Positions 700-32,631 of a stretch of DNA of 64,000 nucleotides are shown piece after piece. Made by a program: the position numbers and the translations under genes. The DNA is taken from positions 1,573,602 through 1,637,601 of the forward strand of contig OY761465.1 of NCBI GenBank assembly GCA_963664535.1, in the 5' to 3' direction. The notes beneath the pieces were generated by a model that made no database searches, was not told the origin of the DNA, and saw only the letters and a program-made list of their open reading frames with translations. Source of the stretch: Candidatus Binatia bacterium. GTDB lineage: Bacteria; Desulfobacterota; Binatia; UBA9968; JAJDTQ01. Positions within the stretch are counted from its first letter, which is position 1. Every line of letters starts with the position of its first letter.

Positions 700-720
700 G
701 GGGCCGAATCCGCCGTCTCA

Positions 721-737
721 GTCACGGCATCCGTGAC
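721..737 (+). terminator. perfect 7-bp-stem hairpin GTCACGGcatCCGTGAC just after the hemY stop
   Basis: The inverted repeat is read directly in the sequence and is followed by T-rich sequence. Putative intrinsic terminator. Confidence 0.3.
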
Positions 738-789
738 TTGGTCGTTCTCCGGGACGACAACTTTGGTTCCCAACAATTACAAACCCCAA

Positions 790-850
790 ATAAATTTTTG
801 CCAAAAAAACTATTGCCAAAAATTATTTTGTCGATTATGATGAGGATCCC
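790..850 (+). promoter_or_regulatory. AT-rich promoter-like region with a TTGCCAAAAA direct repeat upstream of the ATPase pair
   Basis: TTGCCAAAAA occurs twice (798-807 and 814-823) in the only strongly AT-rich stretch of the first 5 kb. TTGCCA is -35-like, with AATTAT/GATTAT downstream. Confidence 0.3.
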
Positions 851-878
851 TTAAGAATTGCAACAGAGAGACTCACAA

Positions 879-2081
879 ATGCGCAACATAACGGGACAGG
901 CAGTTATCGGCGACGATCTTTACGGGAGAGAGTATGAAGTCACCCGACTTTGGGAAATGCTGGAACAGGGCGAGCATATACTGATGCTTGCTCCCAGACG
1001 GGTGGGCAAGACGAGCTTAATGCTTGAGCTTCATCGCTCACCTCGCGAAAACTGGGACGTCTTCTATGTCGATGTGGAGGCCGGCAAGGGACCCGCGGAC
1101 TGCGTTGCAGCGATTCTCGCCGCGCTGGCGGCGGATCCTCAATACCGGACCCGTTTTGAGGCGATGCCATTCTCTAACGCCATCAAGGACGTTTTCGGCC
1201 ATCTGTCTGTCAACGCCGACGTCGGCGCACTTCGAGTTGAGCTCGGGAACGCCATCGGGCGGGAATGGGACCGCGCGGCGGACCAACTCCAGACACGCCT
1301 TACGAGTCTCCTGGACGTAGGACGCCGTCTTCTAATCATTGTCGATGAACTGCCCTTCCTTCTCTCGCGGATGCTCCGAGCCGGAGGGCAGGAACGAGAC
1401 ACCGAGTTACTGTTGTCGCGCCTTAGGCACTGGCGTCAGGCGCCGGAACTGCGCGGAAGGGTCCACACCCTTCTTGGTGGATCGATCGGCCTCGATGGGG
1501 TGCTGAGACGGGCCGGCCTTTCAGGCACCGTGAACGACCTCACGCCATTTCGACTGGATTCGTGGGACCCACCCACGGCAGTCAAATTCCTGAAGATACT
1601 GGGACGCGATTACAACTTCGCCCTTGGAGACGAGTCTGTTGAGCAAATCCTGGATTTGCTGGGAGATGCTGTTCCGTATCACGTACAGTTATTCTTTTTG
1701 GCCCTCCGCGATGCCTGCAAAGGCGACCCCCAAAACGTCTCGCAACACTTGATCGCGGTTTGCTTTGCGGACCAGTTGGCGGGGTCGAGTGGCACCGTTC
1801 ATCTGGACCACTACGCGACGCGCCTTGAGTTCGCTCTTGACGGGGACGAGCTCCAAACCGCGCTCGACATCCTGGGTCGTGCCTGCCGGCGCGAATGGGG
1901 TGTCAGTCTCGCGGAACTCGATGATCTGCGGCAACGGAGCGAGGCGGCGTTTCGGTCCGTGTTGCGTAACCTCCAGACCGACGGCTACCTCCGCCGACAT
2001 CCAGATGAAACCTTACGCTTCCGTTCGAACCTCTTGCGGCAGTGGTGGATGAAATATCAAGGAAGAGCAGCCGCGCGATGA
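879..2081 (+). CDS. P-loop NTPase of the archaeal-ATPase/STAND type (Arch_ATPase/COG1672-like)
   Basis: Walker A LAPRRVGKTSL and Walker B LLIIVDELP. The C-terminal part is winged-helix/DUF234-like. ATG at 879; the track ORF starts at a TTG at 858. The stop overlaps the next gene by 4 nt (ATGA). Confidence 0.6.
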   Translation: MRNITGQAVIGDDLYGREYEVTRLWEMLEQGEHILMLAPRRVGKTSLMLELHRSPRENWDVFYVDVEAGKGPADCVAAILAALAADPQYRTRFEAMPFSNAIKDVFGHLSVNADVGALRVELGNAIGREWDRAADQLQTRLTSLLDVGRRLLIIVDELPFLLSRMLRAGGQERDTELLLSRLRHWRQAPELRGRVHTLLGGSIGLDGVLRRAGLSGTVNDLTPFRLDSWDPPTAVKFLKILGRDYNFALGDESVEQILDLLGDAVPYHVQLFFLALRDACKGDPQNVSQHLIAVCFADQLAGSSGTVHLDHYATRLEFALDGDELQTALDILGRACRREWGVSLAELDDLRQRSEAAFRSVLRNLQTDGYLRRHPDETLRFRSNLLRQWWMKYQGRAAAR

Positions 2082-4945
2082 CCCGACGACGCCTCTACAA
2101 CCCCGCACAACTCACTCCCGACGAGTTACGCACGTCTTTTGTTGCGCGGGAAGACACTCTTGCGGAGATGCTCCGCTTGACCGGCGAACAGGAGCCGGGG
2201 CATCCCTGCCAGCACATGATGCTCATCGGCCCTCGCGGCATGGGGAAGACAACGCTCGGTCTGAGATTCCTCCATGAGATAGTGGACATACCTACCCTGG
2301 CGGCAATCTGGCAGCCCGTTGCCTTCCACGAGGAGAGCTACGGACTCAGCAACTTGGGCGAGTTCTGGCTCGCCGCCCTGAACCACCTGACCCGGAGCAC
2401 CGAAGATCCCAGGTGGGCTGACCGAGCAGAAGCCTTGGCAAGAGACGAACGAGACGACAGCCGGCTTGCAGCATACGCGCTGGCTGCGTTGATGGACTTC
2501 TGCCAAGCAAGCGGGAAACGATTGATTCTGTTCGTAGAGAACATCGACACGGTCTTCAAGCAACTGGGTGACGAGCGCCAAGTCCATGAGTTGCGCGCCA
2601 CCCTGATCGAACGCCCCGAGATCCTGCTCATCGGCTCCGCCAACACCGTCTTCGAAGCCATTCACAGCCACGGCGAACCGCTTTACGAGTTCTTCCGGCT
2701 CTTCATTCTCAAGGGACTAGGGCCGGAGGATACTCGGCGAATACTCGCAACCCTCGCGAACGATGAAGACAAGCCGGAAGTCATAGAACTTCTTGACCGT
2801 GAACAGGGCCGGCTCGAAACCATACGCCGTTTGACCGGTGGCAACCCGCGGTTGGTCGTGCTTGCGTGCCGGATACTGATCGAGTCGCCTCTAGGCTCCG
2901 CCTTCGACGATCTCGAACGCCTCATCGACGAACAGACACCCTACTTCAAGGCTAGGATTGAGGAATTGCCGGTCCAGGCGCGCAGAGTATTCCACTGTCT
3001 CGCGGAGGGCTGGAAGCCGATGCAAGCCAGGGAGGTAGCTGACGCAGCGAAACTCAACTCCTCCCACGCCAGTGCCCAACTCAGGCAACTGATCGAGAAG
3101 GGTTACGCGCGAGAAGTGACCGTACCCCACGCCAAGCGGACACTGTATGAGGTGGGCGACCGATTCTACAACATCTACTACGTGCTGCGTTTCTCACGCA
3201 CCGGTCGCGACCGTCTGGCGCGACTCGTCGCTTTCCTTCACGACCTCTTCGGTCCCACCGGCATTCGAACGATGTATCCGGCCGCTTTGGAAGGTCCGCG
3301 CATTGGAGCCCCGCATGGCGACGACCACTCGAGTTTGTTGGGCGTCTTGGCTGCGTATGTGGCCGAAGACGAGGACTTCGCAGGACGCGACGACTGGCTG
3401 TGGCAAGCGCTCTCCTTGGCTAAAGAGACGTGGGGTCCGAACGCTCCAGTAGTTGCGGAGATCCGCGAGTCTTTTGCCGCGTATGACCCTGCGACTCCAA
3501 CCCGATTGACTGAGTTGTTGAGCCGCAGCGCCGCACTTTCCGAGCTTGGACGTCTCCAGGAATTGGAAGTACTGTATCGGGCAATGATCGAAGAGAGGCC
3601 GAACGACGCCGGGGCGTGGACGTTTTTGGGCCTTACACTAATGGAAGTGGGACGGTATCACGAGGGCATCGAGGCCTTCAACCGGGTTCTGCGTGATCCC
3701 TTTCCCGCCGACAAGTCAGAATCGCGTTTTTTGTCTGCTGTAGCGTCGTATGGCAAGACGGAGGCTCTCTTTAAATTGAAGCAGTATGCAGAAGCTCTCG
3801 AAGTCGCAAAGTGGTTCGAAAAAAACATAACCCCAGACGACTCGGAATCCTTGCTGCACTTGGCCGCATTCGCATACGACGTGAGCGGCAGAGCTTTGGC
3901 GCAACTGGACCAGAATGAAGAGGCCATGGTCGCTTGGGAACGAGTTGCCGAATCTACACGAGGCCATGACCCCCCGTGGATAAGACGCAGGGCCGCCAAG
4001 TCACTCTGCGCCAAGGGTGCTACTCTCTATAAGTTGGACCGATCCGAGGAGGCCGTGGTTGCTTGGAAACGAGTTGCCGAGTATGTCCACGTAGACGATA
4101 CACCGGATTTGCGGGGAATCGCCGCTAGCGCCCTACGTTCAACGAGTGCTGCTCTCGACAAGCTCAGTGACCTAGACGAACTTGCCCGTGTATGCGAGCG
4201 TGCCAAGGACTATGTTGGCTTGGATGATGCTCCACTTCTGCGGTATGCGGCTGCCAATACTATACTCGCCAGATACCTTACTCTATTGGGCCTACGACGT
4301 TACGAAGAATCGAACGCCGCTTGGCGTTCGGCCGCTGACTATGTCCGCCCAGATGATCCACAGGATTTACGCAAGCCCATCGCAGCTATCCTGTCAACGG
4401 GCGCCAGCCTGCTGAATGCTTTGGGAAGATCCGCCGAGGCAGAAGAACTATGCAACAAAGCAACAGAGATTGATCCAACACATGCTGAGTCATGGCGGGT
4501 GTTTGCAGAAGCCATCCTTGATCAGGACGATTCGGCGCGTTTTGCAAAGGCCGAGGACTGCGCCAGATACGCGGTCAACTTGGCACTTGACAGTGCAGTT
4601 GCTGTCCATACGCTCTGCGATGTTCTGTCTCGTCGCGGCAACTGGACAGCGGCGCTGGATGCGTTTGAGCGCGCTCTCCGCATAGGTGGTGTTGAATTCC
4701 AGAGTAAGAAACGTCCGCATCTGGCGGTGTCGTTGTGCCAAGCCATCACCGCTGGCTATGCACCACGAGCAAAGCGGATCATGGAAGAATTCGGTCTGGC
4801 CGAATCGATGGAGCCCCTTTGGCATGCGGTACGGTTGGCGTTAGGTGAAGACCTCGGCCCCCTGCCCGCGGAGATCATGGATGCCGTGACCGACATCCGG
4901 CAATGCTTCTTCAGCAATCTCGATAGCTCTTCAGACGATACGTAG
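2078..4945 (+). CDS. P-loop NTPase (STAND-like) with a winged-helix domain and a long C-terminal TPR-repeat array
   Basis: Walker A GPRGMGKTTLG and Walker B LILFVENID. The C-terminal ~450 aa are TPR-like repeats (WxxLG, YxEA patterns). The ATG at 2078 overlaps the upstream stop as ATGA. GC is lower than the surroundings. Confidence 0.6.
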   Translation: MTRRRLYNPAQLTPDELRTSFVAREDTLAEMLRLTGEQEPGHPCQHMMLIGPRGMGKTTLGLRFLHEIVDIPTLAAIWQPVAFHEESYGLSNLGEFWLAALNHLTRSTEDPRWADRAEALARDERDDSRLAAYALAALMDFCQASGKRLILFVENIDTVFKQLGDERQVHELRATLIERPEILLIGSANTVFEAIHSHGEPLYEFFRLFILKGLGPEDTRRILATLANDEDKPEVIELLDREQGRLETIRRLTGGNPRLVVLACRILIESPLGSAFDDLERLIDEQTPYFKARIEELPVQARRVFHCLAEGWKPMQAREVADAAKLNSSHASAQLRQLIEKGYAREVTVPHAKRTLYEVGDRFYNIYYVLRFSRTGRDRLARLVAFLHDLFGPTGIRTMYPAALEGPRIGAPHGDDHSSLLGVLAAYVAEDEDFAGRDDWLWQALSLAKETWGPNAPVVAEIRESFAAYDPATPTRLTELLSRSAALSELGRLQELEVLYRAMIEERPNDAGAWTFLGLTLMEVGRYHEGIEAFNRVLRDPFPADKSESRFLSAVASYGKTEALFKLKQYAEALEVAKWFEKNITPDDSESLLHLAAFAYDVSGRALAQLDQNEEAMVAWERVAESTRGHDPPWIRRRAAKSLCAKGATLYKLDRSEEAVVAWKRVAEYVHVDDTPDLRGIAASALRSTSAALDKLSDLDELARVCERAKDYVGLDDAPLLRYAAANTILARYLTLLGLRRYEESNAAWRSAADYVRPDDPQDLRKPIAAILSTGASLLNALGRSAEAEELCNKATEIDPTHAESWRVFAEAILDQDDSARFAKAEDCARYAVNLALDSAVAVHTLCDVLSRRGNWTAALDAFERALRIGGVEFQSKKRPHLAVSLCQAITAGYAPRAKRIMEEFGLAESMEPLWHAVRLALGEDLGPLPAEIMDAVTDIRQCFFSNLDSSSDDT

Positions 4946-4989
4946 GCGGGCGCGCTTCTTACCGCGCCCCCTTTCCTCTGGATCCCGGA

Positions 4990-5424
4990 TCAAGTCCGGG
5001 ATGACAGGGAGGTGGGCTCGATCCGCTGCCGGCTCAACGTCGGCTCGTATAGCATCTGGACGACCACGCCGTCGGGATCCGCGCAGTAGAAGGAGGCGCT
5101 GCCGTCGCGGTGGCGCTTGAAGGGCTTGATGATGGTGACCTGCCGGGCGCGGAACTCGGCTTCGAGTTCCTGGACGCGGTCGATTTCGGAGACGATGAAG
5201 CCCAGGTGGTCGAGGGACGAGGTGGCGGAGGGAGCCCGGTCGCCGGGGGTCTCGTGCAGGGCGAGATTGTCCGTCCCGGAGCTGAGGTAGGCGTTTTGGG
5301 GGTCGGGCTGCCACACGACTTCCATGCCCAGAATGTCTTGGTAGAAGGCTTTGGAGCGCTCGACGTCCTTGACGTTGAGGGCGATGTGGCGCATTCCCAT
5401 CAGGCCGCTGAGCGCCTTGGGCAT
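4990..5424 (-). CDS. VOC family protein (glyoxalase/bleomycin-resistance/dioxygenase fold)
   Basis: MRHIALNVKDVERSKAFYQDILGMEV is a classic VOC N-terminal beta-alpha-beta-beta-beta signature. Confidence 0.7.
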   Translation of the reverse strand: MPKALSGLMGMRHIALNVKDVERSKAFYQDILGMEVVWQPDPQNAYLSSGTDNLALHETPGDRAPSATSSLDHLGFIVSEIDRVQELEAEFRARQVTIIKPFKRHRDGSASFYCADPDGVVVQMLYEPTLSRQRIEPTSLSSRT

Positions 5425-6362: not shown

Positions 6363-8690
6363 TTACTTGGTACCGCCCTGGCACAGGCGCCAGATCTTCT
6401 CGGGCTTGAGCGGCATGTCGATGTGGGTGACGCCGAACGGGGCCAACGCATCCACCACCGCGTTGACGATGGAGGGCGTGGAGCCGATGGTGCCGGCCTC
6501 GCCCACTCCCTTGACCCCCATGGGATTCACCGGCGACGGGGTCTCCGTTCGGGCGAATTCCAGCGGCGGCAGGTCTTCCGCCCGGGCCACGGCGTAGTCC
6601 ATGAGGCTGCCGGTGACGAGCTGGCCGTCCTCGTCGTAGACCACTTCCTCCAGCAGCGCCTGCCCCAGTCCCTGGGCGATGCCGCCCTGCACCTGGCCGT
6701 CCACGATCATCGGGTTGATGACCTTGCCGCAGTCGTCCACCGCCACGTACTTCTTGATCTCGATCTCGCCGCTGTGGGTGTCCACTTCCACCACGCAGAT
6801 ATGCGTGCCGAAGGGGAACGTGAAGTTCGACGGCTCGAACACGGACGTGGCCTGGAGCCCCGGCTCCATGCCCGCGGGCAGCTTGGTGGCCACGTGCGCC
6901 TGCAGGGCGACCTCCTGGATGGTGATGCCCTTGTCGGGCACGCCCTTGACCGAGAACTTGCCGTCCTCGAACTCCAGGTCCTCGGCGCTGCACTCCAGCA
7001 CGTTGGCGGCGATGGCCTCGGCCTTCTCCCGGACCTGCTGGGTCGCCATGTACACCGCGGTGCCGCCCACGGAGATGCCGCGGCTCCCGAAGGTGCCGAT
7101 GCCGTTGGGCACCACCGCCGTATCGCCGTGCAGCACGGCCACGTCCTCGATGGGAACGCCGAGATCGTCGGAGACGATCTGCGCGAAGGTGGTCTCCTCG
7201 CCCTGGCCGTGGGGCGAGACGCCCGTCAGCACGGTGGCCTTGCCGGTGAAGTCCATGCGCACGGTGCCGCTTTCCCAACCGCCCGCCGGCAGCGCCGCGG
7301 AAGGACCCATGGCGCAGATCTCGACGTAGGTGGAGAAGCCGATGCCCAGGTAGCGGCCTTCCTCCCTGAGCCGCTTCTGCTCCGCGCGAAGGTCCTGGTA
7401 GCCCACCATTTCCAGCGCCTTGTCCAGCGCCGCCTGGTAGTTGCCGCTGTCATAGGCGAGCCCGGTGGCCACCGGCAGCGGGAAATCAGTCGGCTGGGCA
7501 AAGTTCTTGCGGCGCAACTCCACCGGGTCCATGTCCAGCTCCCGCGCGATCAGGTCCATGGTGCGCTCGATCACCAGGGTGGCTTCCGGCCTGCCGGCGC
7601 CGCGGTAGGCGTCGGTGGCGACCTTGTTGGTGAAGCCGCCGGTGGAGGTGAACTTCAGGGTCGGTATCTTGTAGGAACCGCTGATCATCAACCCGGTGAG
7701 CGGCGGCATTCCCGGCGTGAGGAGCTGGTGATAGGCGCCGGTATCCAGCAGGCTGTCGTAGGTGACGCCCAGGATGGTGCCGTCCTTCTTCACCGCCGCC
7801 TCCACGGTGCCCACCTGTCCGCGTCCGTGGATGGTCGCCTGCATGTTCTCGCGCCGCCCTTCGATCCACTTCACCGTGGCCTTGAGCTTCATCGCCAGAT
7901 GGGCCAGCAGAGCCTCCTCGCGGTAGACGTTCAGCTTGCATCCGAAGCCGCCGCCCACCTCCGGGGCGATGACCCGGATGCGGTGTTCCGGGAACCCGAG
8001 CACGAGCGCCAGCATGGCCCGCAGCAAATGCGGGATCTGGGTCGAACTCCACACGGTCAACTCGCCTTCACCCGGGAAATACCGCGCCACCACGCCGCGG
8101 GTCTCCACCGGAATCGGCGCGAGCCGCTGGTGGATGAACTTCTGCTTGACGATGACGTCCGCCTCGGCGCGGGCCTTGTCCATGTCACCGGTGCCGCACT
8201 CGAAGGTGAAGGCCTGGTTGCTGTCCCACTGGGAATGGACGAGCGGCGAGCCCGGCTGAAGCGCTTTCTCGAGATCCGAAACCGCCGGCAGCGGCTCGTA
8301 GTCCACCTCGATGAGGTCCAGGGCGTCCCGCGCCGTGTAGGAGTCCTCGGCCACCACCGCGGCCACGGGCTCTCCCACGTAGCGCACCTCGCCCTGGGCC
8401 AGCACCGGGTGCGGCGGCGTGCGCAGCGTCGGATTGGCGGCGGCGCAAGGCACCGAGCCCACGCTGTCGCCGATGTCCGCGCCGGTCACGACGCTGACGA
8501 CGCCGGGCAGCGACTGGGCGGCGCCCTTGTCGATGCCGTTGATGCGGGCGTGGGCGTGGGGGCTCCGCAGGATGGCCACCTGCAGCACGTCCGCCATCCG
8601 GAGATCGTCCACATAGTGCGAGAGGCCCTGCACCAGGCGCGGGTCTTCCCGCCTCTTCACCTTGGTTCCAACAAGCTTGCTTACCGGCAT
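6363..8690 (-). CDS. coxL: molybdopterin-binding large subunit, form II CoxL-like (xanthine dehydrogenase family)
   Basis: It is 775 aa with an aldehyde oxidase/xanthine DH a/b hammerhead and MoCo-binding domains. The active-site loop is AYRGAGR (form II type, not the form I AYxCSFR). Confidence 0.85.
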   Translation of the reverse strand: MPVSKLVGTKVKRREDPRLVQGLSHYVDDLRMADVLQVAILRSPHAHARINGIDKGAAQSLPGVVSVVTGADIGDSVGSVPCAAANPTLRTPPHPVLAQGEVRYVGEPVAAVVAEDSYTARDALDLIEVDYEPLPAVSDLEKALQPGSPLVHSQWDSNQAFTFECGTGDMDKARAEADVIVKQKFIHQRLAPIPVETRGVVARYFPGEGELTVWSSTQIPHLLRAMLALVLGFPEHRIRVIAPEVGGGFGCKLNVYREEALLAHLAMKLKATVKWIEGRRENMQATIHGRGQVGTVEAAVKKDGTILGVTYDSLLDTGAYHQLLTPGMPPLTGLMISGSYKIPTLKFTSTGGFTNKVATDAYRGAGRPEATLVIERTMDLIARELDMDPVELRRKNFAQPTDFPLPVATGLAYDSGNYQAALDKALEMVGYQDLRAEQKRLREEGRYLGIGFSTYVEICAMGPSAALPAGGWESGTVRMDFTGKATVLTGVSPHGQGEETTFAQIVSDDLGVPIEDVAVLHGDTAVVPNGIGTFGSRGISVGGTAVYMATQQVREKAEAIAANVLECSAEDLEFEDGKFSVKGVPDKGITIQEVALQAHVATKLPAGMEPGLQATSVFEPSNFTFPFGTHICVVEVDTHSGEIEIKKYVAVDDCGKVINPMIVDGQVQGGIAQGLGQALLEEVVYDEDGQLVTGSLMDYAVARAEDLPPLEFARTETPSPVNPMGVKGVGEAGTIGSTPSIVNAVVDALAPFGVTHIDMPLKPEKIWRLCQGGTK

Positions 8691-8693
8691 GGC

Positions 8694-9176
8694 TTACGTC
8701 CCAGCTTTCATTTGTTCCGCGGCCTGTTGCACCGCGTCGACGATATGCTTGTACCCGGTACAGCGGCAGATGTTGCCTTCGAGCCCGTGGCGGATCTCCT
8801 CCTCCGAGGGGCTCGGATTCTCCTGGAGAAGCTGCCGCGTGGCCATGATCATGCCGGGGGTGCAGAAGCCGCACTGGAGGCCGTGGCAGTCCCAGAAAGC
8901 CTCCTGTATCGGATGCAGCCCGTCGTCGGTGGCGAGCGACTCGATGGTCTGGACCTCGCACCCGTCGGCCTGTACGGCCAGCAGCGTGCAGGACTTCACC
9001 GCCGCGCCGTCCACCATGACCGTGCAGGCGCCGCACAGGCTCGTCTCGCAGCCGATGTGGGTGCCGGTCAGGCCGAGAACATCCCGGAGATAGTGCACCA
9101 GCAGCAGGCGGGGCTGCACCTCCGCGGTCCGGCCGACCCCGTTGACTCGAACCTCGATCTTGGTCGTGTTTGCCAT
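8694..9176 (-). CDS. coxS: (2Fe-2S)-binding small subunit of the CoxSLM-type molybdoenzyme
   Basis: It carries two [2Fe-2S] motifs ([11 protein letters not shown] and CGFCTPG...CRCTGY). The start is MANTTKIE at 9176. Three nt separate it from coxL. Confidence 0.85.
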
Positions 9177-28548: not shown

Positions 28549-31245
28549 TTGAGCACGGAAGATCCGTTGGTGACAGCGTTGAGCCTCTCGTCCGGAGCAG
28601 AATTTCAGAAATGCGCGCTCCAGATCAACCCTCGGCACTATTCAGGTACGTATCGCGGCCAGCAGGCAACGCTCGGCGATGACGAATACGTCAGCGCACT
28701 AATAGACAAGGCAATGGACCTCGGAATCACAGTACTGGCGGTAACGGATCACAATCACGTAGGAGGCGTGGATGCGATCAGAATCGCGGCGCAAGAGCAG
28801 AAAATTCACGTGTTTCCTGGTTTCGAGTTGTCATCGACCGAAGGTATCCACGTCCTTTGCCTTTATTCACCAGAAACCACAGAGGAACAACTAGGTCGTT
28901 TTCTCGGCGAGTTCGGCATTCGTGCCACTACGACGTCAAGTGACTTGTGCGACAAGTCTTTCTCCGAACTCCTCGCATGCGTGCATGATCAGGGAGGCAT
29001 TTCCATCGCGGCGCATGTCACACATGACAATGGGTTGCTGCGGACCCTCCAGGGACAGCCTCGGGTCCGTGCCTGGAAGGACGAAAACCTCTACGCCATC
29101 CAAATCCCCGGACCGGTCAACGACCTTCCGGACGACATACGGCCGATCGTTCAAAATAGGAATGGCGACTATTTCCGGGAATACGCACCCGAGCCCGACC
29201 TTGCCATAGCGACAGTTAACGCAAAGGATGTCGCGGCGCCAGACGACCTCGCTGACCCATCGGCTACTTGCTGGATCAAAATGTCCGAGGTCAGCATGGA
29301 AGGCCTGCGCCAAGCATTTCTCGATCCCGGGTCGCGAGTCCGGCTGAACAGCGATCCGGTGCCTGAGGAGCACTCTGAGCTTGTCGCCATGGGATGGCAA
29401 GGGGGCTTCCTGGACGGCACAATGTTCCACTTCAATCCAAATCTGAACGTCTTGGTGGGAGGTCGTGGTGCAGGCAAGTCAACGGTAATCGAAAGCTTGC
29501 GTTATGTACTCGGACTAGAACCGTTAGGTGAAGAGGCCCAATCGGGCCATGCAGGTATTCTCCGTAACGTCCTCCGTAATGGTACCAAGGTGTCTCTCCT
29601 GGTTCGTTGCCATCGCCCAGGGCCGCGAGACTACCGCATCGAACGCACCGTCCCTAATCCGCCGGTCGTACGCGATACTCAGACAGGCGAGGTGCTAAGC
29701 GTAGCGGCGACCAACATTTTTCCCGGTGTAGAGGTCTATGGGCAGCACGAGATTTCGGAACTCACAAAGAGTCCGGAAAAGCTGACCCGGTTGCTTGAGC
29801 GGTTTGTGGAGCGAGACGATTCCGTAGGCAACCAGAAGCGCGAACTGCACCGCGAACTGGAACGCTTGCGTAGTCGGATTCTCGCGGCTCGTAAGGAGCT
29901 CAGCCAGATAGGGGAAAGACTGGACGCTCTGCCAGGACTTGAGGGGACGCTACGGCGCTATCAGGAAGCGGGGTTGGAACAGGACCTGAAAGAACAAAGT
30001 CTTCTGGTACGGGAGGAGGGTGTCCTCGAAACCATACCCGAGCGCCTACAACCGTTGCGGTCCTGCTTGGATGGGTTGCAGCAGGAGTTACCGATTGACC
30101 GGACTTTCCTCTCCCCAAAAGCTCTGGAAGATCTGCCTGGGAAAGCGATCTTGGCTGGTGCCAATCAAGTGTTAGCGAAACTGAACGCCGATCTGGAGAA
30201 AGTGTTACCCGACTTCACTCGGGCACTCGACAAGGCCGAACAGGGTCTCCAAGGTGTCCATCGACAGTTCGGCGAGCGTAGGACCGCGGTGCAAGCAGCG
30301 TACGAGAAGAAGCTTCGGGAACTCCAGAAAGCCAGGATCGACGGTGAGGAGTTCATACGGCTCCGACGTCGGATAGAAGAGTTACGACCCCTCAAAGAAC
30401 GGCAAACGACTCTAGCTCGGATGGAGACGGACCAACAAGAACGACGCCGGAATCTGTTGGCTGAATGGGAGGACATTAAGGCAGCAGAGTTCCGGGCGCT
30501 GGAACGCGCCGGCAAACGTGTCACGCGGAAACTCGAAGGCCGTGTTCGTGTACGTGTCGAGTTTGGCGGAAACCGCGAGGCATTGTTCCAACTCCTCCGT
30601 GATGAGATAGGCGGACGACTGTCCGAGACGATCGACATTCTGCGACAGTCCGACAACTTGTCTCTCAGCGCTTTTGTAAAGGCTTGTCGCCAAGGTCCGG
30701 ACATTCTTCTCACGGAATTCGAAATCTCGGGTGTTCAAGCAGATCGTTTGGCTCAGGCCCCCGACGAGATTCTCATGCAGGTTGAAGAGCTTGACCTCCC
30801 GTCCATCACAAAGATCGAGCTGAACACGGCACCTCCTGACGAAAGGGAAAACTGGCAAGCGCTCGATCAGCTCTCCACTGGCCAAAAGGCAACTGCTGTA
30901 CTGTTGCTCTTGCTACTTGAGTCCGATGCACCACTCGTCGTGGATCAACCGGAGGATGATCTCGACAACCGCTTCATCACAGAAGGAGTTGTCCCGCGTA
31001 TGCGCGACGAGAAACAGCGTCGCCAGTTTCTTTTCTCGACTCATAACGCAAACATTCCAGTCCTCGGAGATGCCGAACTCATCCTAGGTCTCAGCGCATC
31101 GGGAGAAGCGGAAGAAGGGAACGCGAAGATTGCACCGGAACACATGGGTTCTATCGATGCTCAAGCTGTGAGAGAGCTTGTGGAAGAGTTGCTCGAAGGT
31201 GGCGAGGACGCGTTCAAGCGCCGGCGGCGCAAGTACGGATTCTAG
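28549..31245 (+). CDS. PHP-family phosphoesterase domain fused to an SMC/Rad50/RecN-like ABC ATPase with a long coiled coil (Ppl-like architecture)
   Basis: The N-terminus carries PHP motifs (AVTDHNHVGG, AAHVTHDNG). The ATPase part has Walker A GGRGAGKST, a ~300-aa Leu/Glu/Arg-rich coiled coil, signature LSTGQK, Walker B/D-loop VVDQPEDDLD and an H-loop FSTHN. It has a TTG start with a GGGAG RBS. GC is lower than the flanks. Confidence 0.7.
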   Translation: MSTEDPLVTALSLSSGAEFQKCALQINPRHYSGTYRGQQATLGDDEYVSALIDKAMDLGITVLAVTDHNHVGGVDAIRIAAQEQKIHVFPGFELSSTEGIHVLCLYSPETTEEQLGRFLGEFGIRATTTSSDLCDKSFSELLACVHDQGGISIAAHVTHDNGLLRTLQGQPRVRAWKDENLYAIQIPGPVNDLPDDIRPIVQNRNGDYFREYAPEPDLAIATVNAKDVAAPDDLADPSATCWIKMSEVSMEGLRQAFLDPGSRVRLNSDPVPEEHSELVAMGWQGGFLDGTMFHFNPNLNVLVGGRGAGKSTVIESLRYVLGLEPLGEEAQSGHAGILRNVLRNGTKVSLLVRCHRPGPRDYRIERTVPNPPVVRDTQTGEVLSVAATNIFPGVEVYGQHEISELTKSPEKLTRLLERFVERDDSVGNQKRELHRELERLRSRILAARKELSQIGERLDALPGLEGTLRRYQEAGLEQDLKEQSLLVREEGVLETIPERLQPLRSCLDGLQQELPIDRTFLSPKALEDLPGKAILAGANQVLAKLNADLEKVLPDFTRALDKAEQGLQGVHRQFGERRTAVQAAYEKKLRELQKARIDGEEFIRLRRRIEELRPLKERQTTLARMETDQQERRRNLLAEWEDIKAAEFRALERAGKRVTRKLEGRVRVRVEFGGNREALFQLLRDEIGGRLSETIDILRQSDNLSLSAFVKACRQGPDILLTEFEISGVQADRLAQAPDEILMQVEELDLPSITKIELNTAPPDERENWQALDQLSTGQKATAVLLLLLLESDAPLVVDQPEDDLDNRFITEGVVPRMRDEKQRRQFLFSTHNANIPVLGDAELILGLSASGEAEEGNAKIAPEHMGSIDAQAVRELVEELLEGGEDAFKRRRRKYGF

Positions 31246-31254
31246 GGCAACAAA

Positions 31255-32631
31255 GTGACGAAGACAGAGCTTCTGGAGCTGATTGCAAACGGCGAGAACT
31301 CGGGCGTGGACTTTAAGCGCGATGTAATTGACAACCGCGCGCTCGCGAAGGTCCTCGTGGCATTCGCCAACCTGCGGGGTGGACGCCTCCTCCTCGGGGT
31401 GGACGACGATGGAACCGTCCGCGGCCTTACGCGGCAAGATCCACGGTTGGAAACAGAAGAGGATGAGACTGGTCCGCACACGTACCAAGCCCTTGAGGAG
31501 TGGGTGATGCAGGCGTGTCGCGACAAGATCCGCCCCGAGATCATCCCCTACTTCGAAACCTTCCGAGAAGTCGCGCCTGGACGTGACGTGGCTGTCGTAC
31601 AAGTCGGTCGCGGGTGGGGTGTACACCACGTGTGGCACAATCAGCATCGCACCTACTACATCCGCGTCGGGACGTTGAGCCGTGAGGCTAGCCCGGAAGA
31701 ACTGGCGCGGATGTTTCAACAGCGAGGTGCCTTTCGCTTGGAACTACAACCGGTGTCAGGCACTTCGATCGACGACTTGGACCCTCGACGCCTTACTCAA
31801 TATTTTGCGGAGATACGAGAACAGCAAGTCCCGGCATCGAATCCACCTGAGGAGTGGCGTATCGAAACAACGGCATGGGCACGGAACGAGGACCAGAAAC
31901 ATTGGCGGGAACTTGTCGATCAGAGGGAACGAGATTGGTACCGTGAACAGGCAGCCGCATGGAAATCATTGCTCGTCAACACCGAGTTTCTCGCCGAAGA
32001 TGATCCGCAACCTGGGACCGTGGCCGGACTTATGTTGTTTGGTAGCAACCCCAGTCGATTCCTACCCCAAGCGAAGATTGACGCCGCCGCCTACTTCGGT
32101 TCGGTGAAAGACTATGCCGCAAAGGAACGGCGCACGCTGCGGGGACCGCTCGTCAGTTTGAAAGGTGTCGACGGTTCCGTGCTGGAGCCTGGCCTCGTGG
32201 AACAGGCAGTGGAGTTTGTCAGACGGAACATCCAGACGGTGCATCTGGAAGGGGGGATACGCCGCCAAGAACGGTGGGACTACCCGGTCGAGGTCGTTCG
32301 TGAGGTGATCGTCAACGCGGTCGTTCACCGCGATTATCTGCTGTCGAGTTCGGACATCGAACTCAGTGTCTATTCCGACCGGCTTGAGGTCATCTCACCC
32401 GGGCGCTTGGCGAACGGCATCACCACAGAGCGAATGCGAGTCGGATGCAGAAGCGCCCGCAACGAGCTGCTGAAAGACGCCATGCGAGACTACGGTTACC
32501 TCGAGCACATGGGTATGGGCGTACCACGAAAGATCATTCGGGGTATGCAGGAGCAGAACCGCACCGATCCCGACTTTATCGAGGACGACGAACGGTTCAC
32601 TGTACGATTGTGGAAGGATCCGCGGGCCTAG
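31255..32631 (+). CDS. COG2865-type protein: Schlafen-like AlbA_2 (divergent-AAA) N-domain plus a C-terminal HATPase_c_4/RecG-C-like domain
   Basis: The N-terminal motif is ENSGVDFKRDVIDNRALAKVLVAFANLRGGRLLLGVDDDGTV. The C-terminal motif is REVIVNAVVHRDYLLSSSDIELSVYSDRLEVISPGRL. It starts 9 nt after the PHP-ATPase gene. Confidence 0.65.
   Translation: MTKTELLELIANGENSGVDFKRDVIDNRALAKVLVAFANLRGGRLLLGVDDDGTVRGLTRQDPRLETEEDETGPHTYQALEEWVMQACRDKIRPEIIPYFETFREVAPGRDVAVVQVGRGWGVHHVWHNQHRTYYIRVGTLSREASPEELARMFQQRGAFRLELQPVSGTSIDDLDPRRLTQYFAEIREQQVPASNPPEEWRIETTAWARNEDQKHWRELVDQRERDWYREQAAAWKSLLVNTEFLAEDDPQPGTVAGLMLFGSNPSRFLPQAKIDAAAYFGSVKDYAAKERRTLRGPLVSLKGVDGSVLEPGLVEQAVEFVRRNIQTVHLEGGIRRQERWDYPVEVVREVIVNAVVHRDYLLSSSDIELSVYSDRLEVISPGRLANGITTERMRVGCRSARNELLKDAMRDYGYLEHMGMGVPRKIIRGMQEQNRTDPDFIEDDERFTVRLWKDPRA

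Follow-up and report, generated by a model that had tools for sequence, protein, structure and literature searches.

What does a pair of coupled nucleoside triphosphatase (NTPase) genes do when it carries no recognizable effector? The question is raised by a two-gene islet of lower G+C content (GC) at about positions 700–4989 of a 64-kb stretch of a Candidatus Binatia bacterium genome (contig OY761465.1, 1,573,602 to 1,637,601, + strand); this whole stretch is the window, and coordinates refer to it unless another locus is named. Genes A and B, both on the + strand, have a hemY-like gene on one side and, convergent with them, a glyoxalase gene on the other. Our analyses suggest that they encode an autoregulated, effector-less pair of NTPases of the STAND (signal transduction ATPases with numerous domains) type and that the islet is a self-contained, horizontally mobile conflict or defense module, with DNA binding or a partner acting in trans as its output. 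We consider this reading about equally likely to be right and wrong.

Gene A has possible starts at TTG 858 and ATG 879 and ends at 2081; we placed its start at ATG 879 because the resulting N-terminus, MRNITGQ, is conserved in 24 homologues. Gene B is readable from GTG 2042 to 4945, and ATG 2078 was chosen because the N-terminus MTRRRLYNP is conserved in homologues (955 aa). The features of the islet are as follows.

879–2081, + strand: gene A, 400 aa, an Arch_ATPase/ORC-like P-loop NTPase with a C-terminal winged helix.
2078–2081, + strand: ATGA overlap, formed by the start codon (ATG) of gene B and the stop (TGA) of gene A; translational coupling.
2078–2962, + strand: gene B, NTPase core (aa 1–295).
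2963–3193, + strand: gene B, winged helix-turn-helix (aa 296–372).
3203–4537, + strand: gene B, variable solenoid resembling tetratricopeptide repeats (TPR; aa 376–820).
4538–4945, + strand: gene B, conserved helical C-terminal region (aa 821–955), including the stop codon.
786–841, + strand: AT-rich promoter/operator tract with three 15-nt direct repeats at 786–830.
798–804 and 813–819, + strand: TTGCCAA boxes, with a degenerate third box, TTGTCGA, at 828–834.
813–841, + strand: sigma-70-like promoter, with the –35 element TTGCCA (813–818), a 17-nt spacer and the –10 element TATGAT (836–841).
720–738 and 741–758, + strand: two short hairpins just 3' of the hemY-like stop (inverted repeat; terminator-like site).
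4948–4969, + strand: G+C-rich hairpin directly 3' of the gene B stop, between the convergent B and glyoxalase genes.

The hairpins at 720–758 are probably the terminator of the hemY-like gene and the left edge of the islet, and the hairpin at 4948–4969 is probably a terminator and the right edge. GC is 0.52–0.61 across 750–4750 and 0.65–0.74 outside (gene A 0.592, gene B 0.579, flanks 0.678). The C-terminal part of an Amino_oxidase-family protein, which would fit HemY, is encoded in the upstream flank (22–699); downstream, a VOC/glyoxalase gene (4990–5424, – strand) is followed by CoxS/M/L-type molybdopterin dehydrogenase genes. An earlier sequence-only reading of the window had described two translationally coupled NTPase genes overlapping by ATGA, an islet poorer in GC than its surroundings, and hemY and cox flanks, and all of this is borne out.

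Close homologues of A and of B number in the hundreds each, and many of the A and B matches are on contigs of equal length. A HMMER scan of cluster representatives (50% identity) with A found 2,124 relatives at E ≤0.001 and 232 at E ≤1e-30, nearly all of them full-length proteins of ~400 aa. The B core of a Moraxella plasmid homologue retrieved more than 1,000 relatives, whose tails vary (helical, TPR or Sel1) and in which Pfam shows no enzymatic domain; among the names given in the source records are 'ATP-binding protein', 'MarR family transcriptional regulator' and 'Cdc6-like AAA superfamily ATPase'. The homology of this Moraxella protein to the first 400 residues of B is clear (hhalign probability 100, E 2e-39).

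Counting only loci with readable sequence 3' of A, we found an A-like gene followed by an overlapping B-like gene in 24 of 24, with A identity ranging from >60% to 22%. The layout occurs in twelve species genomes, in three further close-family members (five loci in all) and in relatives at 39, 33, 29 and 26% identity. It is present on plasmids of Moraxella osloensis, Segatella copri and Clostridium tagluense and on the chromosomes of Marinomonas mediterranea and a Psychrobacter, and taken together its chromosomal and plasmid carriers belong to at least five phyla (Binatia/Thermodesulfobacteriota, Gamma- and Alphaproteobacteria, Acidobacteria, Bacteroidota and Bacillota). The overlap reads ATGA in 20 of the 24 loci with both open reading frames (ORFs) delimited; the remaining four, without ATGA, have a 9-nt gap (L007), a computed 37 nt (L015/L016) or 11 nt (L022, L024). 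Pairwise divergence of A correlates with that of the B core (Spearman 0.81). The sequence-only reading had looked to co-conservation of the genes, and to a possible housekeeping context beside replication genes, for a decision on their nature: A and B stood together in every locus examined, down to 22–26% A identity, in at least five phyla and on chromosomes and plasmids alike, and no replication genes lay beside them in these loci. Sequence comparison thus points to an old module whose two genes are always inherited together.

No third gene was conserved across the contexts compared, and neither an integrase or transposase nor repeat boundaries were seen to travel along with the pair. Two genes recur nearby. 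In three unrelated contexts (L005 14851–16029, L008 15949–17379, L015 14182–15693), an ATPase gene with AAA_14 and DUF4143 domains is found one to three genes away from the pair; its distance and orientation vary, by which we rejected it as part of the module, and it may be another island-dwelling gene. A convergent VOC/glyoxalase gene is found immediately 3' of B in three unrelated hosts (window 4990–5424, L017 14114–15043, L025 12165–12563), but the three copies are only 22–34% identical and the window copy is native to its site; it was rejected as well, and the recurrence is probably a coincidence. Separately, two tandem ADP-ribosylglycohydrolase genes stand directly 5' of the pair in L007 (6649–9819), and clustering placed homologous ORFs at the equivalent position of L010 and L011 (~5.6–10 kb).

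The 180-nt spacer before gene A consists of the two hairpins and then the AT-rich tract, and GC falls to 0.455 over the 200 nt preceding the gene. The promoter-like tract with direct repeats that had been noticed there from the sequence is indeed present, as three 15-nt repeats (786–830) and a TTGCCA-17-TATGAT promoter. The second TTGCCAA box coincides with the –35 element, and the operator overlaps the promoter. TTGCCAA-N8-TTGCCAA is a single site in the window (0.2 matches expected at two mismatches). Exact copies were found in 15 loci, one in each, 58–80 nt 5' of the gene A start, and no further copy was seen in the ~330 kb of 16 close-family loci scanned or in the rest of the window. In an alignment of 9 upstream regions from several phyla (Binatia-like, Desulfurellaceae and gammaproteobacterial loci) the boxes are invariant, and the repeats keep a 15-bp period with three or four units. 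Pair members at 33–39% identity retain TTGCCA(A) boxes; more distant ones have, as judged by eye only, other direct or inverted repeats or palindromes at the same place. Since this upstream DNA is noncoding and yet conserved across phyla, selection on a protein-binding site is implied, and the winged helices of A or B would be the obvious candidate binders, in autoregulation. The 15-bp-period operator moves with the close A/B family across several phyla. Judged from their arrangement, A and B are produced from one transcript that starts at a sigma-70-like promoter embedded in the TTGCCAA repeats, with translation coupled through ATGA.

We then compared the states of the hemY/glyoxalase site, using the neighboring glyoxalase protein for a metagenome scan. 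In distant relatives the hemY and glyoxalase genes abut without an insert (15 nt apart in L033), and this junction is the ancestral state. An empty site is also seen in L030 (Aplysina aerophoba metagenome, MKWU01000638; coxL 96% identical), in which a 350-nt spacer separates the convergent genes (8408–8762). The spacer retains TTGCCAAGAATTCTGTTGCCAA within a longer palindrome, and beyond this 22-nt operator motif it has no alignable similarity to the region upstream of A in the window; from the motif and its position between convergent genes we read TTGCCAAGAATTCTGTTGCCAA as the relic of a lost module. The same spacer contains a perfect inverted repeat with 22-nt arms (~50 nt in total), GTCATTCCCGCGGAAGCGGGAA...TTCCCGCTTCCGCGGGAATGAC. 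Other loci hold damaged or divergent copies: L027 (3559–4098) has an in-frame deletion inside A, of roughly residues 119–385, next to an intact B; L012 (11203–12885) is decayed, with a B of just 560 aa; and the B allele of L029 is only 57% identical. The closest relative by flanks, L028 (Petrosia ficiformis metagenome, LXNJ01006016; coxL 99% identical), has no A/B beside the glyoxalase gene. Instead, at L028 2147–5401, an unknown 383-aa gene and a 698-aa HerA/DUF87 ATPase (PADLOC HerA, E 2e-16) come after the glyoxalase gene, and the contig ends before hemY. The site may be a hotspot with alternative cargo. According to PMC5099237, these records (L027–L030) derive from sponge metagenomes.

The composition and divergence of the pair differ from those of its surroundings. 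In every high-GC host the pair lies 2–9 points below its flanks in GC, and between phyla identity is still 61–70% for A and 64–76% for the B core. A codon-level comparison of the window with four syntenic genomes gave discordant synonymous divergences (dS) along the islet. Against L001, dS was 0.045 for A and 0.45 for the B core; against L003, it was 0.16–0.32 for the flanks, 0.72 for A, 0.82 for the B core and ~2 for the TPR region; and against L004, the distance to the window is smaller for the TPR and C-terminus than for A. The ratio of nonsynonymous to synonymous divergence (dN/dS) was 0.17–0.20 for A, 0.13–0.15 for the B core, 0.30–0.43 for the TPR region and 0.22–0.86 for the B C-terminal region, against 0.07–0.29 for the flanking genes. 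Among 15 loci, mean identity was 43% for the TPR region versus 73% for the B core, and the TPR region, in which 43-aa units have been gained and lost, measured between 266 and 380 aa. The histories of the A protein, the B core and the B sensor form a mosaic, and the TPR region evolves faster than any other part. As judged from these site states and divergences, the module has been gained, lost, broken and recombined among close relatives and moves between phyla.

What the two proteins could do must be read from their motifs and predicted folds. STAND NTPases are marked by an hhGRExE-type motif before the P-loop, a Walker A motif GxxxxGKT/S, a Walker B motif hhhhD[DE], a GxP-type motif in the helical domain, a winged helix and a C-terminal repeat sensor (TPR, WD40 or LRR). 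In A, the GRE-type motif is DLYGRE (G16 and R17 invariant), Walker A is LAPRRVGKTSL, intact and invariant in homologues, and Walker B, LLIIVDELP (IVDELP), is canonical with D156 and E157 invariant. The GxP-type position is occupied by DPVPYH (P266 and H268 invariant), a winged helix follows at aa 344–381, and the protein ends in an invariant NLLRxWW without a sensor region. The structural model (predicted local distance difference test, pLDDT, 83) consists of an NTPase core, a helical domain and the C-terminal winged helix. A falls below every Pfam cut-off (AAA_22 26.9/27 bits, AAA_16 24.8/32.6, ATPase_2 22.5/33.2, nSTAND6 15.1/27.7). The best solved match of its fold is 2qen, a Walker-type ATPase of Pyrococcus abyssi (E 5e-9), followed by archaeal ORC2 (E 6e-7), and further structural neighbors include Cdc6, plant nucleotide-binding leucine-rich repeat proteins (NLRs), Avs3, clamp loaders, RuvB and MuB. 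The NCBIfam scan of A gave no match, and the best PADLOC-DB 2.0 matches, PDC-S27 (E 9.5e-4) and mad8 (E 1.6e-3), cover only the P-loop region.

Gene B adds a sensor-like array to a comparable core. Its Walker A, IGPRGMGKTTL, is intact and invariant in homologues, while Walker B, LILFVENID (E154, N155 and D157 invariant), has Asn in place of the second acidic residue and is not the canonical D-E or D-D; the Moraxella plasmid homologue (~30% identical) has IDN and keeps the same Asn. Of the clean Walker motifs that had been ascribed to both proteins, both Walker A motifs and the Walker B of A hold, and the Walker B of B, with its EN.D pattern, does not. The GRE-type motif is SFVARE, with Ala instead of Gly (F21, A23 and R24 invariant), a GSAN sensor-1 region is present in the core, and the GxP-type motif GGNPR (G255, N256, P257 and R258 invariant) is followed by a winged helix at 299–359. 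This winged helix is modeled as helix-helix-helix-strand-strand, gives Pfam matches within 303–355 (HTH_IclR 303–346, E 2e-4; HTH_27 and MarR_2 weak) and contains a near-invariant SSHASAQLRQL...KRTRYEV..DRFYNIYYLLR. TPR matches extend over 485–870 (TPR_1, E 1e-16), and from residue 376 onward the model (pLDDT 80) contains helices only, with a solenoid of ~570 aa (376–946). The winged helix and TPR array proposed for B are thus both found. The solenoid includes 43-aa (129-nt) units whose number varies between homologues; the units are diverged, and a TRF scan of this region detected no tandem repeats at the DNA level. The C-terminal region has an invariant MEPLWHA...PLPAEI. B exceeds the AAA_16 cut-off (35.2 bits versus 32.6) and scores 16.9 bits for ATPase_2 (PF01637; cut-off 33.2), and against ORC/Cdc6 models it reaches 11.5 bits for TIGR02928 (E 0.099; cut-off 181) and 20.4 for PF24389 (cut-off 27). 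Fold search placed it near the STAND-TPR protein 6mfv and the peptide-binding TPR proteins Rap, PlcR and NprR; NCBIfam gave TPR noise only, and the best PADLOC match, IetA (E 0.024), is confined to the P-loop region.

Judged by these sequence marks, both proteins are of STAND type and belong to the broad STAND/ORC-like NTPase superfamily. We treat them as distinct families because their profiles share the P-loop only: comparison gave a probability of 87% over just 66 columns, and recent paralogy was rejected. No more than ~20 residues precede the NTPase core in either protein. By Pfam, PADLOC, NCBIfam and fold search of the models, we found no enzymatic effector (nuclease, protease, TIR, SIR2 or other) in A or B, in agreement with the sequence-only reading. 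Pfam showed no LuxR/GerE domain in either protein, the B C-terminus being a helical repeat, and direct reading of the sequences revealed no signal peptide or hydrophobic N-terminus. Ten distant members searched with PADLOC gave only P-loop or generic winged-helix similarity, and nothing relevant turned up in the literature, whether the search was for a described ATPase/ATPase-TPR pair, COG1672/PF01637 or the newer Pfam names. That the pair is not a described system is consistent with PADLOC-DB 2.0, NCBIfam and the literature; an obligatory two-NTPase, effector-less architecture with a traveling operator is absent from the profile libraries and literature searched.

We read the selection on this locus as being of the conflict type because it combines a self-contained unit, its own promoter, movement between phyla, presence/absence polymorphism with alternative cargo, recombination, and a fast-evolving sensor on a conserved switch. 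Under such a conflict or defense role, B would be both sensor and switch, its TPR solenoid binding a protein or peptide ligand and its NTPase, with Asn at the catalytic Walker B position, serving as a slow nucleotide-dependent switch that drives oligomerization. A would be a hydrolysis-competent ORC/Arch_ATPase-like partner with its own winged helix, made in fixed proportion to B and assembling with it. While the pair is at rest, the module promoter may be repressed at the TTGCCAA repeats by the winged helix of either A or B. Once activated, the A/B complex could bind or load onto DNA in an ATP-dependent manner, and so either keep an invader from replicating or being transcribed or change the transcription program of the host; alternatively, it could recruit a factor encoded elsewhere.

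Several observations weigh against a role in conflict. The parts played by A and B, their assembly with each other, the ligand, the output and the binding of a winged helix to TTGCCAA are all inferred, and so, as no effector is present, is the whole of the killing or blocking step. For immune sensors, the cores of A and B are unusually conserved (>60% identity across phyla), and average dN/dS is <1 everywhere. PADLOC-DB 2.0 gave the window pair no match that reached beyond the P-loop, the best being at about E 1e-3. Searches with close-family and broad patterns found no relatives in 50,697 GenBank phage records or 2.9 million viral contigs (IMG/VR). The neighborhoods count on both sides: ~6 of ~16 independent contexts have defense or mobile-element genes within 10 kb, in favor of a conflict role, and the remaining ones are metabolic or housekeeping, including those of the cultured Marinomonas and Psychrobacter. 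The former comprise a context with type I-F cas, SLFN_AlbA_2, WYL and leucine-rich repeat (LRR) genes; one with AAA_15/21 and DUF4276; L006 and L012, in which a DUF499 and DUF1156 system stands beside the pair together with AAA_15/21 and a transposase; one with DNA methylases; the Moraxella plasmid, with Qat genes, a kinase, insertion sequence (IS) elements and a methylase; and the Segatella plasmid, with two DUF262 genes, WYL and IS elements. The DUF499/DUF1156 system has been described as related to BREX (10.1101/2025.10.09.681413). The association of the pair with defense genes is suggestive only, and the interpretation offered in the sequence-only reading is supported in part.

A bolder form of the conflict reading would make the pair a new class of immune or conflict system in which two coupled STAND/ORC-like NTPases are the whole machinery. 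The hypervariable TPR sensor of B would detect an invader protein, and the response would be enzyme-free, through assembly of A and B on DNA, silencing or blocking replication of the invader, or through derepression of host responses; such a bacterial counterpart of sensor/helper NLR pairs would spread horizontally together with its TTGCCAA iteron operator. We put this forward tentatively and think it rather unlikely.

The nearest relatives in mode of action are found among the Avs/bNACHT proteins (Avs1–21, bacterial NLR-like). Like B, these have a P-loop NTPase, helical and winged-helix domains and a large TPR-like sensor; like the pair, they combine a conserved core with a variable sensor, are horizontally transferred and sometimes reside in defense islands, and Avs3 is a structural neighbor of A. 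Avs proteins are single polypeptides whose effector domain is required for activity (PMC12803255). A and B differ in having no effector, a second, unrelated NTPase that is obligatorily coupled, a conserved operator of their own and no match to a PADLOC Avs/NLR model. We did not file the pair as an Avs/bNACHT member, since it has neither a fused effector nor a profile match; by analogy, it would nevertheless work most like the antiviral STAND/NLR-like proteins. Plant sensor/helper NLR pairs, too, consist of two linked STAND proteins acting together. This is an analogy only, with no evolutionary link beyond the superfamily, and plant helper NLRs carry an executing domain (coiled-coil, CC, or TIR) that A and B lack.

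Other systems share parts of the architecture. The Arch_ATPase/ATPase_2 family (PF01637; PABY2304, 2qen) and archaeal Orc1/Cdc6 have the same order of NTPase, helical domain and C-terminal winged helix as A, but A falls under the Pfam cut-off (22.5 versus 33.2 bits) and is always paired with B. With its fold closest to 2qen and its score below the cut-off, A works like this family without curated membership; we know of no function for 2qen-type proteins. In BREX and BREX-related systems, the ORC/Cdc6- or STAND-type ATPases with winged helices (BrxC, BrxD, BrxB, DUF499) act as scaffolds, sensors and DNA-recognition units, not as effectors (10.1101/2025.10.09.681413). The A/B pair, in contrast, travels without PglZ, a methyltransferase or any other BREX gene. 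A similar layout is found in PifC-PifA of the F plasmid (T7 exclusion), where a ~360-aa gene is directly followed by one for a ~740-aa P-loop protein. PifC-PifA is autoregulated from an operator. Identity with the Pif system was rejected for want of homology (hhalign probability 0.7% for PifC and 1.3% for PifA).

The most serious competing explanation, in our view possible if unlikely, is that A and B are a ligand-sensing pair of STAND transcription regulators of the MalT, AfsR and PH0952-like kind. A regulatory ATPase pair was also the alternative offered in the sequence-only reading, and it gains some support from the operator and the MarR-like winged helix. The B TPR would sense a small molecule or peptide, and B, together with A, would bind TTGCCAA sites, autoregulate and control distant genes, as an accessory rather than an immune function. 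Both proteins have the parts for it: a MarR/IclR-like winged helix with a near-invariant recognition helix in B, a C-terminal winged helix in A and a conserved operator overlapping the promoter. The source name 'MarR family transcriptional regulator' points the same way, as do the many metabolic contexts and the strongly conserved cores, both of which also count against a conflict role. B resembles 6mfv and the peptide-sensing TPR regulators Rap, PlcR and NprR. PH0952 of Pyrococcus horikoshii (6mfv) and MalT-type regulators with TPR/SUPR sensors share its NTPase, winged helix and TPR (the 6mfv alignment spans 873 columns, with low TM-scores of 0.19/0.26), and both they and B suggest a nucleotide-dependent switch under the control of a repeat sensor. 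Yet no context has a conserved neighboring target operon, and the operator motif occurs nowhere else in the window or in the ~330 kb of 16 close-family loci. Presence/absence, alternative cargo, mosaic domains and a fastest-evolving sensor would be unusual for a regulator of core metabolism, members reside on plasmids and in defense islands, and there is no LuxR- or SARP-type output domain. The pair differs from MalT/LAL regulators in the lack of a LuxR-type output domain and an adjacent regulated operon, in its partner NTPase, and in being mobile and polymorphic; with no LuxR/GerE domain and no conserved neighboring operon, identity with MalT/LAL was rejected.

An improbable explanation is that the pair is a selfish or maintenance module, an addiction, exclusion or stabilization cassette of no anti-phage benefit that would persist by spreading horizontally and by post-segregational or exclusion effects. 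Its patchy distribution, lower GC, own promoter and operator and plasmid copies fit this, and so do its frequent decay (the broken A of L027, the short B of L012) and loss (L030) and the one A-like protein fused to an AbiEi-type helix-turn-helix (HTH). Opposed to it are the absence of a toxin-like component and of any integrase, transposase or repeat boundaries that accompany the pair, long-term purifying selection on both proteins, and the size of the unit, 4 kb of costly NTPases being atypical for addiction cassettes.

We consider it very improbable that the pair is a host-interaction factor of sponge symbionts, a eukaryote-like TPR protein manipulating the animal host. The closest relatives do come from sponge metagenomes (Petrosia ficiformis LXNJ, Aplysina aerophoba MKWU), the close family spans several phyla, and one of its records is named RHO1_bin_43, which we take to hint at a sponge host. 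Against this, no signal peptide or hydrophobic N-terminus is visible, the NTPases are of cytoplasmic type with DNA-binding folds, and the same two-gene layout exists in free-living or unrelated hosts (Psychrobacter, Marinomonas, Moraxella, Segatella and Clostridium). A housekeeping pair of ORC/Cdc6-like replication or repair ATPases, suggested by the likeness of the A fold to archaeal ORC2/Cdc6, clamp loaders, RuvB and MuB and by the weak ORC-CDC6-like Pfam and TIGR02928 matches of B, is scarcely credible and largely refuted by the presence/absence polymorphism, as the pair is horizontally mobile, missing from close relatives with an intact flanking region and never beside replication genes, and its scores lie far under the curated cut-offs; identity with an Orc1/Cdc6 initiator was rejected on the same grounds (TIGR02928 and PF24389).

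Elsewhere in the window we noted a second low-GC islet at 28549–32631 (GC 0.56 versus 0.65–0.69 around it), encoding an 898-aa protein with PHP, SMC_N and AAA_21 ATPase matches and a 458-aa SLFN_AlbA_2 and HATPase_c_4 protein; it may be a further accessory or defense cassette. The latter domain combination recurs among the rare N-terminal fusions of A-like ATPases, two of which, P0290 and P0336, were listed together: P0290 is fused to SLFN_AlbA_2 and HATPase_c_4, and the other carries an AbiEi_4 HTH. GC also dips at ~54–56 kb and at 58–62 kb (0.60), and no tRNA genes or Rfam families at gathering score were found across the window.

The conserved operator provides a direct experimental handle on the pair, and the question of function is testable now because carriers exist in culturable bacteria (Marinomonas mediterranea, Psychrobacter and the Moraxella osloensis plasmids). 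If A and B are a regulator pair, they would represent a large, uncharacterized and horizontally mobile family of STAND-type regulators and would still mark a variable hotspot in sponge-symbiont genomes. If they are an immune module, it would be a widespread one (2,124 A-like clusters at 50% identity and >1,000 B-like), an effector-less STAND system, for which one would have to ask how sensors built on a nucleotide switch can stop an invader with no help from a nuclease, protease or NADase, and it would add a two-NTPase architecture to bacterial NLR-like biology.

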